A stretch of 64,000 nucleotides of DNA from a virus (Duplodnaviria; Heunggongvirae; Uroviricota; Caudoviricetes). The first letter of the stretch is position 1; every line of letters starts with the position of its first letter. Of this stretch, positions 1,292 to 27,370 are shown piece after piece. The stretch lies in IMG/VR virus record IMGVR_UViG_3300030029_000205. One strand, written 5' to 3'. A model generated the notes under the pieces. The model was given only the letters and a program-made list of their open reading frames with translations. It was not told the DNA's origin and made no database searches. The position numbers were made by a program, and so were the translations under genes.

Positions 1292-1540
1292 GTGAGTTAT
1301 AAATGTAGTAAATGCCGTAATGATAGGCTAAAGAAGCTGTATAATGAGACCAAAACTTGCTATGGTTGTGGTGTTTATTATGATAAAAGAAAAGGTAGAT
1401 TAGTAAGATGCTATATATCTAAAAGAGGTGCCAAAAGGTATTATAAACATACTTCTAATAGAATGATTAGAAGAAAGAGAGCAATGGGTAATAACGGTTA
1501 TTTTAAAAAAGTTTATGATGTATGGTGGAATTTATATTAA
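1292..1540 (+). CDS. small basic zinc-ribbon-like protein (CxxC...CxxC)
   Basis: ORF 1250-1540. Best start is GTG 1292, 7 nt after GAGGTG. CSKC...CYGC cysteine pairs and K/R-rich sequence. Followed by a terminator. Start is uncertain. Confidence 0.45.
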   Translation: MSYKCSKCRNDRLKKLYNETKTCYGCGVYYDKRKGRLVRCYISKRGAKRYYKHTSNRMIRRKRAMGNNGYFKKVYDVWWNLY

Positions 1541-1545
1541 AGAGA

Positions 1546-1577
1546 CAGGTTAGGTTAATTACCTAACCTGTTTTTTT
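1546..1577 (+). terminator. intrinsic terminator (AGGTTAGGT-taatt-ACCTAACCT + T7)
   Basis: 9-bp GC-containing stem followed by TTTTTTT. Near-identical to the terminator at 6628. Confidence 0.7.
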
Positions 1578-1608
1578 AGGAATACATTATAAAATTTTTA
1601 GGAATACA

Positions 1609-24508: not shown

Positions 24509-24716
24509 TTTACATATTTTATATGTTGTTTTCTCACCTCCAAGATTTTATAGGGTTTTGTGGGGAAGATTAAATTCTTCCCTACAAAATAATAAAATTA
24601 TTTTAAGAAAGCATTTAAGTTTTGTTAGGTATATGTTAAAATGTAAATACAATATTCAAGTTATTGTATTTACATTTTAGTATATAGAATATTTTAAAAA
24701 TGTTTTAAGAATGACT

Positions 24717-24745
24717 TGTAGCTATACTTGAAATATGGTAAAATA
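24717..24745 (+). promoter_or_regulatory. promoter TTGTAG-N17(…TGG)-TAAAAT, copy 1 of tandem duplicated promoter
   Basis: Lies inside the first 115-bp repeat unit. Confidence 0.55.
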
Positions 24746-24830
24746 TGTATATACTTAGAAAGATACAATATTTAAACTATTGTATTGCATTTCAGTATAT
24801 GAGATATTTTAAAAATGTTTTAAGAATGAC

Positions 24831-24859
24831 TTGTAGTTAGTTTTAAAATATGGTAAAAT
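24831..24859 (+). promoter_or_regulatory. promoter TTGTAG-N17(…TGG)-TAAAAT, copy 2 of tandem duplicated promoter
   Basis: Lies inside the second repeat unit, about 40 nt upstream of the ORF-free RNA region. Confidence 0.55.
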
Positions 24860-24899
24860 ATGTATATACTTAGAACCTTGACAATTATAAATATTATAA

Positions 24900-25640
24900 G
24901 TGGCAGTAATACCTCAGTGAAGAGCGACTAATCATCGTGCTGAGAATATACTGAATGGAGTAACGGTATGTTGGGATACTTACATACTAAGACTTTACTA
25001 TACATCGAGAGGTGTAAGGTAGGAGTTTCAAAGCGAAACAACCAAGGGTATATGTGCTGTAAGTAATTTTTTCATAAGGTACTTTTAAGATGACGTAGAC
25101 ATAATAGACAGCCCAGTGGGTGTTGAATCAAGGTAGCTGACAAGTGTGAGAGCTTGGGTAGCGATGTGAAAACTCAAATAAGTCTAAATTTTGCAGTTGA
25201 AGCTCAGAAATGAGTGTATAAGTCATTGATAAAGGTATGAGTAGCCCAAATCTGCAAAGAACTGTAAAAGAAAAAAGGTTTAGTTAACCTAAGAACAATT
25301 TCTGAATGATGGGTGAAAATGAAGGGTATCAATCCCTTGTACTCAGTGTACCCTAAAGGGTAGGTGTAAGAAGTTTATATGTGACGATGTATAGGCTCAG
25401 ACTTACATCAGTACTGACTGATTAATGAACTGATTATATTATGGTATGCTGAATAAAAGGCAATTGCTGTTACTTATAATATTTATAATGGAGAGGGTAA
25501 TTCCAATGGGCAATCTAAGGGTGAGTTTTTGATAGTCTTATCTCGCCCCAGAAAGACTATCCGAATTGATTTCTAATACCTGTAATATAGCTATTAGAAT
25601 AGTTCGTTTTGTAAGCTCGGCTTATCCATAAGTCGAGCAG
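24900..25640 (+). ncRNA. candidate large structured non-coding RNA (ORF-free ~740 nt between tandem promoters and the tRNA array)
   Basis: No ORF of 60 aa or more on either strand from 24680 to 26028. Numerous local hairpins, e.g. a 10-bp stem at 25612-25636 and AAGGGTATCAATCCCTT. Lies directly downstream of duplicated strong promoters and upstream of tRNAs. Confidence 0.3.
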
Positions 25641-25642
25641 AT

Positions 25643-25748
25643 ATGTGTCGATAGTTCAATTGGTAGAAACTTACGCTTGAGCTAAGGGGTATTGGTTAAA
25701 ATATTTCTTAGTAAGTATGGGATATAGGTTCGAGTCCTATGAGACACA
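25643..25748 (+). tRNA. atypical tRNA-like element (D-arm AGTTCAATTGGTAGAA, T-arm ATAGGTTCGAGTCCTAT, ~106 nt; possible intron or long insertion)
   Basis: Canonical D-loop and GGTTCGAGTCC T-loop motifs. Acceptor GTGTC/GACAC pairs. About 30 extra nt between anticodon region and T-arm. Anticodon not resolved. Confidence 0.3.
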
Positions 25749-26057
25749 ATAGAAAAATAAGCTTGCAATATGCCGTTTACAAGCGTGGAGGTTTTGAGAC
25801 AAAGCCAAAAGCGGTGGGTAGATTTATTCTTTAAATTTGTCTTAAACCTCTAAATCTATTAAGCCTTTTAAGATAAGTATTTAAAAGATTATCAAACACA
25901 CACTTTGAATACCTTATTTTAATAAAAACTTATGAATATTGGCTGTATTCATTCTTACAACGAAGGAGTTTATGGTAGTAATTTGTAATATAATTCGAAC
26001 CACTGGTGTAAATGTAAAAACACACCTTTGTTGTTTAAGAGAAAAGGAGAGTATATT

Positions 26058-26231
26058 ATGTTAAATGTAAACAATGTACCTAAATATGCAAAATCAAGAA
26101 GATTTTGGGTAATTCGTGAAGTAGGTGAAGAGCATTGGTTTTACGGAGCTTTTGATGATGTTACAAGAGCTTTTAAAAGTGCCAAGGAAGTTGAAAATGC
26201 TTTGCTTATAGAAAATACAGAGTTAATTTAA
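26058..26231 (+). CDS. small hypothetical protein (57 aa) embedded in the tRNA region
   Basis: ATG 26058, 8 nt after AAAAGGAGAG. Translation MLNVNNVPKYAKSRRFWVIREVGEEHWFYGAFDDVTRAFKSAKEVENALLIENTELI. Confidence 0.5.
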   Translation: MLNVNNVPKYAKSRRFWVIREVGEEHWFYGAFDDVTRAFKSAKEVENALLIENTELI

Positions 26232-26284
26232 AGAACCCATTGTATTTTGATAAGATTTGTAGTAAACTACAAGTAGTTAAATAA

Positions 26285-26372
26285 GCTGGTATGGTGGAAT
26301 AGGCAGACACAAGGGACTTAAAATCCCTCGGTCATTGCGACCGTATCGGTTCAAGTCCGATTACCAGCACCA
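26285..26372 (+). tRNA. tRNA-Leu (anticodon TAA), type II with long variable arm, CCA encoded
   Basis: Acceptor GCTGGTA/TACCAGC. Anticodon stem AGGGA/TCCCT with loop CTTAAAA. Variable arm CGGTC...GACCG. T-arm TCGGTTCAAGTCCGA. Discriminator A plus CCA. Confidence 0.85.
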
Positions 26373-26517
26373 TGAGGTGGGTATTAGAGTTACCCATCTT
26401 TACATCCAAAGGTAGTCCTCCAACTACATAAAGCATTTAAATGGGTGTGTTAGGTTTTCATAAAAAAACTCTCCTAAAAGAAGTCCTTGCAATTAGTGAG
26501 TGTTGCAAGGACAACCT

Positions 26518-26591
26518 GTAGATGTAGTTTAATGGTAAAATGTCAGTTTCCCATACTGAGGTTGTGGGTTCGATTCCCATCATCTGCTCCA
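26518..26591 (+). tRNA. tRNA-Gly (anticodon CCC), CCA encoded
   Basis: Acceptor GTAGATG/CATCTGC (one G-U). D-arm GTTTAATGGTAAAAT. Anticodon stem TCAGT/ACTGA with loop TTCCCAT. T-arm GTGGGTTCGATTCCCAT. Discriminator T plus CCA. Confidence 0.6.
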
Positions 26592-26890
26592 CTGGTGATT
26601 CACCAGTTTATTATAAGAAAACCAGCTTATATGTTGCAGGTAAATTTCTTATAAAAACCTACAGAAAGCAAGTCCTTGAATAAAGGTTGAGTAGGGTAAG
26701 ATGCTTTAAAGTTATGCACCTTTAGCTTAAAGATAGCAACCGTGTAAAAACGGTAAAGACGGTAGGGTATCCATTATAGAAGGGGTTAATGGTACTCTTT
26801 ATGGTGCTAATTATTCGAGTAAAGTTTCTTCAGTAATCTTGCTCGAATACAAACTGAAGTGACCAACCCCTATATAGGGGTTGGGTATAT

Positions 26891-26958
26891 GGAGATGTAG
26901 TATAAGTAGTATCTTAGCTATGTTAAGGGTATGAGTGCAAGTCTCATCATCTTCACCA
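26891..26958 (+). tRNA. short tRNA-like element (good acceptor and T-arm, reduced D region; anticodon unresolved)
   Basis: Acceptor GGAGATG/CATCTTC. T-arm ATGAGTGCAAGTCTCAT. ACCA at the 3' end. Only 65 nt before CCA, so possibly a degenerate tRNA. Followed by a terminator at 26958-26981. Confidence 0.3.
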
Positions 26959-26981
26959 CCCATCCAGAATGGGTTATTTTT
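26958..26981 (+). terminator. small terminator hairpin (ACCCAT-ccaga-ATGGGT + TATTTTT) after tRNA-like 26891
   Basis: 6-bp stem plus T-tract. Confidence 0.45.
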
Positions 26982-27078
26982 AAAGAGTGCTTACTTTCGC
27001 TGTTTCTTTCTTTTTTGTACAAATTGATTACATAACATAACCGTTCAAATCTTTATAAAGTAAGCACTCAATTGAATA

Positions 27079-27152
27079 TGCAGAAAGTAGTTTAATGGTA
27101 GAATACCCGCCTAAGAGGAGGAAGATGCAGGTTCGACTCCTGTGTTCTGCAG
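27079..27152 (+). tRNA. tRNA-like gene, type and anticodon unresolved
   Basis: Acceptor TGCAGAA/TTCTGCA, 7 bp perfect. D-arm TAGTTTAATGGTAGAAT. T-arm GCAGGTTCGACTCCTGT. Anticodon stem pairs poorly in every register. Loop region contains CCTAAGAGG. Confidence 0.45.
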
Positions 27153-27341
27153 TGTAATGATAGGTAGCAAGTGTTATATACAAGCAATAAAGAGCTCGAT
27201 TGTGGAGTATGACACTGTCATAGGTAACTAAGGTAGACTTGTGAGCAAGGTCAAGTACATCTGTTATCGAATGGTGTTAAATCCTGTGATGATATAGAAC
27301 CTGCGAAACTATATGTTATCTGTCATTCGAGTGTATATTAT

Positions 27342-27370
27342 AAGGCTACTGTTTAAGTAGCCTTTTTATT
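27342..27370 (+). terminator. intrinsic terminator closing the tRNA/ncRNA operon (AAGGCTAC-tgtttaa-GTAGCCTT + TTTATT)
   Basis: 8-bp stem plus T-tract, immediately before the DHH gene. Confidence 0.65.

Follow-up and report, generated by a model that had tools for sequence, protein, structure and literature searches.

A 64,000-nucleotide (nt) stretch of a tailed-phage genome (Caudoviricetes; IMG/VR record IMGVR_UViG_3300030029_000205), referred to here as the window, carries three conserved tRNA-shaped RNAs with non-canonical anticodon arms. We have named them E1 (25645-25748), E2 (26891-26958) and E3 (27080-27151), and all three are encoded on the + strand. They lie in a nearly gene-free island of 2.7 kb between an HU-like gene and a DHH/RecJ-like gene. 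The order within the island is ROOL RNA, E1, a small open reading frame (ORF), tRNA-Leu, tRNA-Gly, E2, E3, a structured RNA of 170 nt and a terminator. E1-E3 keep the L-shape of a tRNA but have no normal 7-nt anticodon loop, and we therefore take it that they do not decode. With moderate confidence, we favor the view that they are tRNA-derived, non-decoding RNAs that punctuate a long non-coding transcript and are matured by the host's RNase P and RNase Z. We favor it because of the leader motif, the hairpins, the distribution of encoded CCA ends, the placement of the promoters and the slot that follows ROOL.

The phage is about 185 kb long and prevalent in the human gut, whose metagenomes have repeatedly yielded its assembly (contigs of 185,375 and 184,950 base pairs (bp)). 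The loci of its relatives, designated by L-numbers, were collected by means of the RecJ-like protein and a 57-amino-acid (aa) ORF of the island. They comprise strain-level variants (L014-L023, L056, L072) and relatives whose RecJ-like proteins are 87-88% (L005, L057, L058, L097), about 70% (L006, L025) or about 60% identical (L007, L009, L012/L059, L095). The gene order HU, ROOL, RNA island, RecJ is kept in all relatives used. Below approximately 55% RecJ identity the island is no longer beside RecJ, and such relatives were unusable for comparison. A BLASTN search of the island against 50,697 phage records returned generic tRNA-Leu and tRNA-Gly similarity only and no relative. A search of IMG/VR with the RecJ-like protein alone gave no match, and an alignment-based search was needed.

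Detection of the elements was performed with ARAGORN, with the Rfam tRNA model (RF00005; gathering score 29 bits), the odd elements being scored with permissive filters, and with an independent T-arm/acceptor scanner. In its default mode over the window, ARAGORN called tRNA-Leu(taa) at 26285-26372, tRNA-Gly(ccc) at 26518-26591 and a formal 'tRNA-Leu(aag)' at 27079-27152, which corresponds to E3. Its intron and transfer-messenger RNA (tmRNA) modes were also run, and no tmRNA was found in the window; tmRNA-type Rfam models scored 10.8-13.9 bits against the 47-84 bits required. The two canonical genes scored 63.2 (tRNA-Gly) and 57.3 bits (tRNA-Leu) with the tRNA model. E2 (37.1 bits, 26891-26955) and E3 (30.2 bits, 27081-27150) exceeded the gathering score, whereas E1 fell below it (27.1 bits, 25645-25748). 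Across both strands of the window at E<=0.3, the tRNA model matched these five elements only, and the scanner returned exactly the same five. The cluster is therefore not due to chance. The original prediction had proposed five elements on this strand, two of them canonical tRNAs with encoded CCA, and all five were recovered where it had placed them: tRNA-Leu(UAA), a class II tRNA, and tRNA-Gly(CCC) both fold canonically and end in CCA. E2 also has an encoded CCA, and E1 and E3 have none. The predictors thus recovered more than the two canonical tRNAs, and the remaining elements are conserved in relatives. Each of the three has a 5-bp T stem with G53-C61 and an acceptor helix of at least five Watson-Crick pairs, which is the T-arm-stacked acceptor of tRNA-like processing elements of the t-element/mascRNA type. 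None has a canonical anticodon arm, that is, a 5-bp stem and a 7-nt loop with U33 and a purine at position 37.

E2 consists of 65 nt followed by CCA. It had been described as having a reduced D region, and this was borne out: a 7-bp acceptor stem is followed by a 4-bp D stem with a D loop of 5 nt (5-7 nt among homologues) and no GG. In addition, its 'anticodon' arm (26914-26926) is a 5-bp stem with a loop of only 3 nt, UAU, and its T loop reads UGCAAGU. Covariation in the proposed cloverleaf was assessed on ten distinct sequences, with 500 shuffles and slid-partner controls. Pairing was maintained in 99% of cells, and 12 of the 21 pairs showed changes on both sides, with all four stems represented. 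The observed covariation was reached by 0 of the 500 shuffles, and slid partners paired in 36-56%. The E2 of L006 differs by double changes in the T stem (three) and the acceptor stem (one) and by two G.U-to-G-C changes in the D stem. The innermost pair of the 'anticodon' stem (31-39) covaries from C-G to U-A, so the loop is indeed only 3 nt long. Counterparts by position or structure, with closed loops of 3-4 nt, were found in more distant islands at L009:3135-3202 (CUCU-UAC-AGAG) and L095:4343-4412 (CAUA-GUGA-UAUG). E2 looks like a derived paralogue of the phage's tRNA-Gly(CCC). In L025 its acceptor stem is identical to that of tRNA-Gly(CCC) and is followed by U73 and CCA (position 73 is A in the window), and the next-best matches to a covariance model built from E2 are tRNA-Gly(ccc) genes, at 48-61 bits.

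E1 differs in that a 48-nt irregular hairpin (25669-25716) stands in place of the anticodon arm. An element of about 106 nt with some 30 extra nt between anticodon and T arm had been proposed here; the extra nucleotides are real, but they lie inside the anticodon arm. The acceptor stem has five Watson-Crick pairs and a tandem G.A/A.G, with U at position -1, A at position 73 and no CCA. Among strains, variation is confined to the insert while the tRNA body is invariant. The homologue in L025, whose RecJ-like protein is 70% identical, lies at L025:4199-4302 and scores 31.9 bits with the tRNA model. Its acceptor stem keeps the tandem G.A/A.G and otherwise differs by compensatory changes (U-A to C-G, C-G to U-A). 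Its arm, 46 nt long, is unrelated in sequence but follows the same plan, in which an internal loop on the 5' side separates a 5-bp base stem from a long upper stem. Both arms fold better than shuffled sequences (z -3.4 in the window, -4.1 in L025). A further expanded-arm element is present in L012/L059 and in L069.

E3 is the most highly conserved part of the island. It is 97.2-98.6% identical in L006, L025 and L058, compared with 79-96% for tRNA-Gly, 86-91% for tRNA-Leu, 93-97% for ROOL and 73-89% for the RecJ-like gene at the DNA level. The spacers that flank it cannot be aligned with L006. The original prediction credited this element with a perfect acceptor stem and an unpaired anticodon stem. 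The former did not hold: the element most likely starts at G27080, and its acceptor has six Watson-Crick pairs, an A7.G66 mismatch and one extra nucleotide (G8) after position 7. The latter reduces to two conserved mismatches (C27.A43 and G30.A40) in an anticodon stem with three of five pairs. This arm (27107-27121; CCGCC-UAAGA-GGAGG) is of canonical length with a conserved internal G.A, and a C32-G38 pair can close its loop to 5 nt. The D and T loops are canonical, the variable loop is 4 nt long and A73 is present without CCA. The commonest substitution changes the would-be U33 to G (position 27112), and G is found in six relatives; AAG, A37 and A73 are invariant. Paralogues of E3, termed E3b, occur in L006, L095 and L009. 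They share the CC-G-C.../...G-A-GG stem with its G.A and an AAGAU variable loop, and have loops of 4-5 nt (CUAAA or GAUG), of which GAUG cannot open to 7 nt. The E3b of L009 has an encoded CCA and C at position 33. Thermodynamically, the E3 hairpin fold alone is non-significant (z -0.5 to -1.3), and it is the recurrence in paralogues, and this only, that suggests the hairpin. Members of the E3 family scoring at least 78 bits are confined to this clade, and the next-best matches are again tRNA-Gly(ccc) genes. The E3/E3b pattern had 0 matches in 185,579 reference genomes and was found in one IMG/VR contig; a host tRNA, an attachment site and a common prophage element are therefore all rejected as readings of E3. 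A mini-ORF inside E3 (Shine-Dalgarno-like GGAGG followed by AUG, encoding MQVRLLCSAV) is not conserved in the paralogues and was discarded.

Conserved features were also identified around the elements. Of 17 atypical elements, 14 have ATAT immediately before G+1, compared with 6 of 22 canonical tRNAs or tmRNA, in seven islands (the window, L006, L007, L009, L012, L025 and L095). The background frequency of ATAT is 0.012, and the enrichment in atypical elements is highly significant (p about 2e-28). An A at position -4 and a U at -1 suit bacterial RNase P. The inverted repeats that had been noted next to the tRNAs also exist. One forms a hairpin at 26478-26507 (+), 10 nt upstream of tRNA-Gly (-17.7 kcal/mol, z -5.0), and hairpins of unrelated sequence occupy the same position in L025 and L006. 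The other, at 26860-26879 (+), lies 11 nt upstream of E2 (z -4.5). Strains show a compensatory change in it from CCCC/GGGG to CCTC/GAGG, and L006 has an unrelated GC-rich hairpin in its place. The suggestion that these repeats are processing sites is plausible and is partly supported by the z-scores, the retention of position in relatives and the ATAT leader. A 13-bp inverted repeat (AGTGCTTACTTT ... AAAGTAAGCACT; arms 26983-26996 and 27056-27069, +) is situated just upstream of E3. Its arm sequences are conserved in L005, L006 and L025 (70-88% RecJ identity), and its loop of about 60 nt varies, with an insertion in L006. It could be a protein-binding or RNase III-type site.

The CCA-less E3 abuts the conserved structured RNA, while a terminator-like hairpin (26958-26974) comes directly after the CCA of E2. 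A similar hairpin (26591-26607) directly follows tRNA-Gly. RNase P and RNase Z recognize the acceptor/T-arm domain and the elbow of their substrates. In Bacillus-type bacteria, RNase Z processes CCA-less precursors and is blocked by an encoded CCA.

The island begins with ROOL (24889-25481, +), which matched RF03087 over its full length (model positions 1-574) with 252 bits against a gathering score of 99.1 and is 92.7% identical in L025. Its presence directly upstream of the tRNA array, which had gone without mention in the original prediction, reframes the whole locus. A predicted promoter region precedes it (24634-24875, +), in which a tandem direct repeat of about 115 bp (24647-24760 and 24763-24875; 88.7% identical) is accompanied by three extended -10 motifs, TGTTAAAAT/TGGTAAAAT, at 24634, 24736 and 24851. 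Each repeat copy carries TGGTAAAAT. The motif TGNTAWAAT recurs in other intergenic regions of the window, upstream of several other genes, so it is probably the main promoter type of the phage. The search for extended -10 motifs upstream of E2 and E3 was negative; a sigma-70 scan was uninformative. E1 is the first RNase P-type structure after ROOL. The spacer between the two ranges from 35 to 162 nt, the shortest being that of L025. In this clade, the first element after ROOL is E1 in the window and L025, a tmRNA in L007, tRNA-Met in L009 and L012, and an odd tRNA in L095. The tmRNA of L007 (about 62% RecJ identity), at L007:5526-5937, is full (Rfam 90.3 bits; tag GKNVTFHPALLATLSSRKAVA), starts 22 nt after ROOL and occupies the slot held by E1 in the window. 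Among further ROOL loci, 22 of 54 have a tRNA, tmRNA or tRNA-like element that begins no more than 100 nt from the estimated 3' end of ROOL, and 8 of 60 have one on the 5' side.

At the other end of the island, an unclassified multi-stem non-coding RNA of 170 nt (27159-27328, +) follows E3 directly on the 3' side. Its identity to the L006 and L025 counterparts is 74-78%; the other spacers are unalignable with L006. RNAalifold gave 57 pairs, 8 of them with compensatory changes. It matched no Rfam family at E<=10 and contains no conserved ORF; a 24-aa ORF downstream of E3 is not conserved in L006 or L025. An intrinsic terminator at 27342-27364 (+), detected by a terminator scan as were the terminator-like hairpins after tRNA-Gly and E2, closes the island, and terminators of unrelated sequence are found at the equivalent place in L006 and L025.

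Under the punctuation model, the island would be transcribed as a single unit, mostly from the three predicted tandem promoters upstream of ROOL. Host RNase P would then cut at the conserved ATAT|G junction before each element, and RNase Z would cut E1 and E3, which lack CCA, behind their discriminator. E2, with its CCA, would instead be trimmed back from its own terminator hairpin. ROOL would receive its 3' end and the 170-nt RNA its 5' end from these cuts, which would also set free stable tRNA-shaped RNAs. In E1 and E2, selection seems to have acted on shape alone, while the near-invariant sequence of E3 would imply a further, sequence-specific partner, and we think that it probably has one.

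Several observations weigh against this model. Cleavage at E1-E3 is something that we infer entirely from structure, leader motif and adjacency. The terminator-like hairpins after tRNA-Gly and E2 could split the island into separate units. While E3 adjoins a conserved structured RNA and E1 comes first after ROOL, the spacer upstream of E2 (26592-26890) is structurally unconserved: as a structured RNA its covariation term was positive, which gives no support, so E2 may punctuate nothing. For a processing handle, an acceptor/T-arm minihelix would be enough, but E2 shows covariation in its D and 'anticodon' stems too, and the conservation of E3 at nearly every base points to more than a cis role. 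Further, the rule that a tRNA follows ROOL is true in only about half of the ROOL loci sampled. Finally, E3 has features, considered below, that would allow it to decode.

It is also possible, though we hold it to be less probable than not by a good measure, that the elements are trans-acting tRNA mimics that titrate a host or phage factor recognizing tRNA shape or the acceptor end. Candidates would include a tRNA-directed defense nuclease or toxin, a modification or CCA enzyme, EF-Tu and a synthetase. Without an anticodon loop, such mimics would be invisible to translation, and they would be compatible with maturation by RNase P and RNase Z. The fact that E3 is 97-99% identical, loops and stem G.A included, while the true tRNAs are only 79-86% identical fits this proposal, as base-level conservation of this type is typical of a specific macromolecular partner. 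The whole L-shape of E2, beyond the minihelix, covaries. The encoded CCA of E2 and of the L009 E3b resembles that of mature tRNAs, and independent ROOL/tRNA islands also contain truncated-loop tRNA-like RNAs (22 atypical elements in 63 loci versus 1 in 57 controls), but this excess mostly tracks the density of tRNA genes (296 versus 25 tRNAs). However, Pfam and PHROG scans recognized no tRNA-related enzyme, defense or anti-defense gene near the island, and anticodon nucleases, the best-known tRNA-directed defenses, target a loop that is absent from these RNAs. Since the base-level conservation of E3 and the whole-shape covariation of E2 exceed what a handle needs, we regard a mimic role as a serious rival that does not exclude punctuation. 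In its most specific and equally tentative form, E3 with its paralogues, and perhaps E2, would be a dedicated trans-acting mimic derived from tRNA-Gly that engages one specific tRNA-binding machine. This could be a tRNA-directed defense or toxin, a translation or tRNA-maturation factor, or the ROOL nanocage. A looser relationship with that nanocage, in which the tRNA-like RNAs are its partners or cargo, either tethered in the same transcript or docked via the tRNA elbow, seems to us unlikely. The elements share an island, and probably a transcript, with ROOL, and E1 or another tRNA-type element closely follows it in this clade. The portions of the ROOL/GOLLD cryo-electron microscopy paper that bear on this speculate that the cages might hold phage tRNAs (PMC12286853). 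Nevertheless, this support is purely positional, the ROOL-E1 spacer is variable, and the E3 family is limited to this clade while ROOL is widespread.

The remaining alternatives would return some or all of the elements to the ordinary tRNAs. E3 could be a real but unusual decoding tRNA with anticodon AAG that reads CUU, is charged by leucyl-tRNA synthetase via A73 and tolerates a weak stem. We consider this unlikely, if marginally less so than an association with the nanocage. The window and every close relative receive a tRNA-Leu(aag) call from ARAGORN, and the Rfam score slightly exceeds the gathering score. The canonical arm length, the invariant AAG, A37 and A73 and the use of CUU as the second most used Leu codon (21%) count both for decoding and against the punctuation model, and the L009 paralogue reads UAA, also a Leu anticodon, in the same frame. 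In contrast, position 33 is G or C in the relatives and paralogue described above, conserved mismatches occupy two of the five stem positions, and the C32-G38 pair can shrink the loop. Of the tRNA-Leu identity features, a long variable arm plus A73, E3 has only A73, whereas the neighboring true tRNA-Leu(UAA) has the long arm. The extra nucleotide and A7.G66 are atypical, the 4-nt loop of the L006 and L095 paralogues cannot decode, and the rate of evolution of E3 is far below that of its true tRNA neighbors. A stop-reading anticodon, which had been entertained on account of CTA/TAA triplets in the loop, is not supported either: the triplets of CCTAAGAGG are lost in relatives that read CCGAAGAGG, and ARAGORN called no suppressor anticodon (CUA, UUA or UCA) in a canonical loop in the window. 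The standard genetic code assumed by the original prediction was confirmed, with ORFs of up to 2044 aa in table 11 and all three stops terminating (TAA 29, TGA 9, TAG 3); a suppressor is therefore neither needed nor present. E1, for its part, could be a split tRNA gene whose hairpin is an intron, removed so that the halves are ligated into a functional tRNA, and this we regard as improbable. ARAGORN's intron mode does return 'tRNA-Ser(tga) i(39,11)'. Phages with ROOL islands elsewhere have perfect tRNA genes with 60-72-nt tRNA-like inserts in the anticodon loop, and insert removal may therefore exist in this phage world. However, removal of the hairpin (an insert of 33-36 nt) leaves 8-nt loops, CGCUUGAG, CGCCUGAA and GUUAGAGA, in the homologues, with no shared anticodon. 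The outer molecule is non-canonical: its D stem is weak, its acceptor contains the tandem G.A, and CCA is missing. No intron family in Rfam matched E1 at E<=10, neither group I introns nor other ribozymes, and such inserts are not known to have a bulge-helix-bulge motif or to be served by a bacterial splicing endonuclease. The intron reading of E1 is thus not supported, and we reject it, if not absolutely. Least probable of all is that the elements are decaying, functionless tRNA pseudogenes. Their low tRNA-predictor scores and the resemblance of E2 and E3 to the neighboring tRNA-Gly(CCC) would be in keeping with decay, but compensatory substitutions in every E2 helix, the architecture of E1 kept in L025 despite sequence turnover, a near-invariant E3, the most conserved part of an island with unalignable spacers, and a conserved ATAT|G leader all speak against it, and we reject it. 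Among the options that had been listed for these elements, which were intron-containing, suppressor or specialized tRNAs, tRNA-derived RNAs and decaying pseudo-tRNAs, only that of specialized or tRNA-derived RNAs survives.

The punctuation that we favor has precedents. MALAT1 mascRNA is a tRNA-like processing signal that is cut by RNase P and RNase Z. In plant mitochondria, t-elements are tRNA-like signals that are cut to define the ends of neighboring transcripts (PMC1920247). Similar to E1-E3, these RNAs are non-decoding acceptor/T-arm mimics with reduced or aberrant anticodon arms, and the same mechanism is proposed here. In contrast to the phage elements, they belong to eukaryotes or organelles and are demonstrably cleaved, whereas cleavage of E1-E3 is deduced from structure, leader motif and adjacency. 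Acceptor/T-arm modules joined to a non-tRNA extension are also seen in tmRNA and in the Y-RNA-like YrlA. However, G3.U70 is present in none of E1, E2 and E3, E1 ends at its acceptor stem, unlike YrlA, and the single match to YrlA (RF02553; 16.9 bits versus 69) overlaps tRNA-Gly rather than E1-E3. E1 and E3 were accordingly rejected as tmRNA, YrlA or permuted tmRNA on their Rfam scores. Staphylococcus uses a non-proteinogenic tRNA-Gly in cell-wall synthesis in which GUGC replaces GT-Psi-C in the T loop. E2 is likewise a tRNA-Gly paralogue, by its looks, with an altered T loop (G-UGC), but the Staphylococcus tRNA keeps a normal anticodon loop and is charged by glycyl-tRNA synthetase, whereas E2 has its 3-nt loop and, in the window, A73 rather than U73.

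In phages, ROOL and GOLLD are described, in the relevant parts of two papers, as large ornate RNAs found near tRNA islands (PMC5737381, PMC12286853). The window resembles these islands (Weinberg et al. 2017, PMC5737381; Kretsch et al. 2025, PMC12286853) in that a large RNA lies beside a tRNA cluster with which it is probably co-transcribed. In the sections of those papers that deal with the islands, nearby tRNAs only are mentioned, and conserved non-decoding look-alikes are not described. Phage T4 produces the small stable RNAs RNAC and RNAD from its tRNA region, and their roles are presented as unsettled in the pertinent passages (PMC3014915, PMC9697503). These are, similarly, small non-tRNA RNAs from a phage tRNA gene cluster. 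Unlike the window, T4 has no ROOL, and truncated- or expanded-arm cloverleaf mimics are not stated for RNAC or RNAD in the corresponding passages of PMC3014915 and PMC9697503.

The occurrence of comparable elements was surveyed in 63 independent IMG/VR loci with true ROOL (528 kb, 296 tRNAs) and in 57 control loci (440 kb, 25 tRNAs). Elements with a perfect 7-bp acceptor that ARAGORN did not accept as normal tRNAs numbered 22 in the ROOL loci and 1 in the controls. They were of three kinds: truncated-loop elements, expanded-arm elements directly after ROOL, and perfect tRNA genes with an insert in the anticodon loop. Since tRNA density accounts for most of this excess, the association holds for tRNA islands and is not proven for ROOL itself. 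The interrupted tRNA genes, which carry CCA, are L145:4047-4180, L210:8286-8418(-), L170:1809-1944(-), L145:2163-2308 and L170:5117-5250(-). Their inserts are mini tRNA-like sequences of 60-72 nt with their own 7-bp acceptor stem, T arm and NCCA end. In ARAGORN's intron mode these genes are called as tRNAs with introns, and removal of the insert with its NCCA would leave a loop of the Lys(UUU) or Ile(UAU) type. They could be 'tRNA-in-tRNA' introns, and our literature search found no description of such genes. Separately, ARAGORN called an amber-reading tRNA(cta), labelled 'Pyl', at L177:7284-7358(-), at L201:4118-4192(-) and in L195, all unrelated ROOL-bearing IMG/VR contigs. Stop-codon recoding may occur in those phages, as distinct from the window.

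Other features of the locus deserve brief mention. The small ORF of 57 aa (26058-26231, +) is the only one in the island. It has a strong Shine-Dalgarno sequence, sits among RNA genes and is a called gene in public contigs. A protein identical to its product is indexed in 203 blocks of public assemblies, and it had no PHROG match. Pfam and PHROG scans of the neighboring proteins revealed no tRNA- or RNA-processing enzyme except the DHH/RecJ-like protein. Short-read unitig assemblies of the phage (Logan contigs L003, L004, L005 and L006) break inside tRNA-Leu, so that ROOL, E1 and the rest of the island's upstream half would escape automated surveys of such assemblies. Outside the island, positions 1527-1580 (+) gave a sub-threshold Rfam match to the Salmonella small RNA STnc390 (36.2 bits versus a gathering score of 50; E 0.0003), which is probably a terminator-like hairpin.

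In conclusion, ROOL and GOLLD rank with the largest RNAs of bacteria and phages whose function is unsolved, and the one constant clue to them is the adjacency of tRNA genes. The locus described here shows that the neighbors of ROOL extend beyond tRNAs to three conserved non-decoding tRNA-shaped RNAs and an unclassified structured RNA of 170 nt. Since atypical tRNA-like RNAs are present in many ROOL islands, the phenomenon may be general. Accepted at face value, ARAGORN's 'tRNA-Leu(AAG)' label for E3 would inflate phage tRNA repertoires and the codon-usage arguments built on them. If E3 and its kin are a dedicated mimic, the anticodon loop would have been closed deliberately, barring the RNA from decoding, and ROOL/tRNA islands would be toolkits of tRNA shapes, whether truncated, expanded or nested as 'tRNA-in-tRNA'. 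The locus provides testable hypotheses on the maturation of ROOL transcripts through RNase P and RNase Z punctuation, and the ultraconserved E3 is a candidate for a specific ligand in the function of the island.

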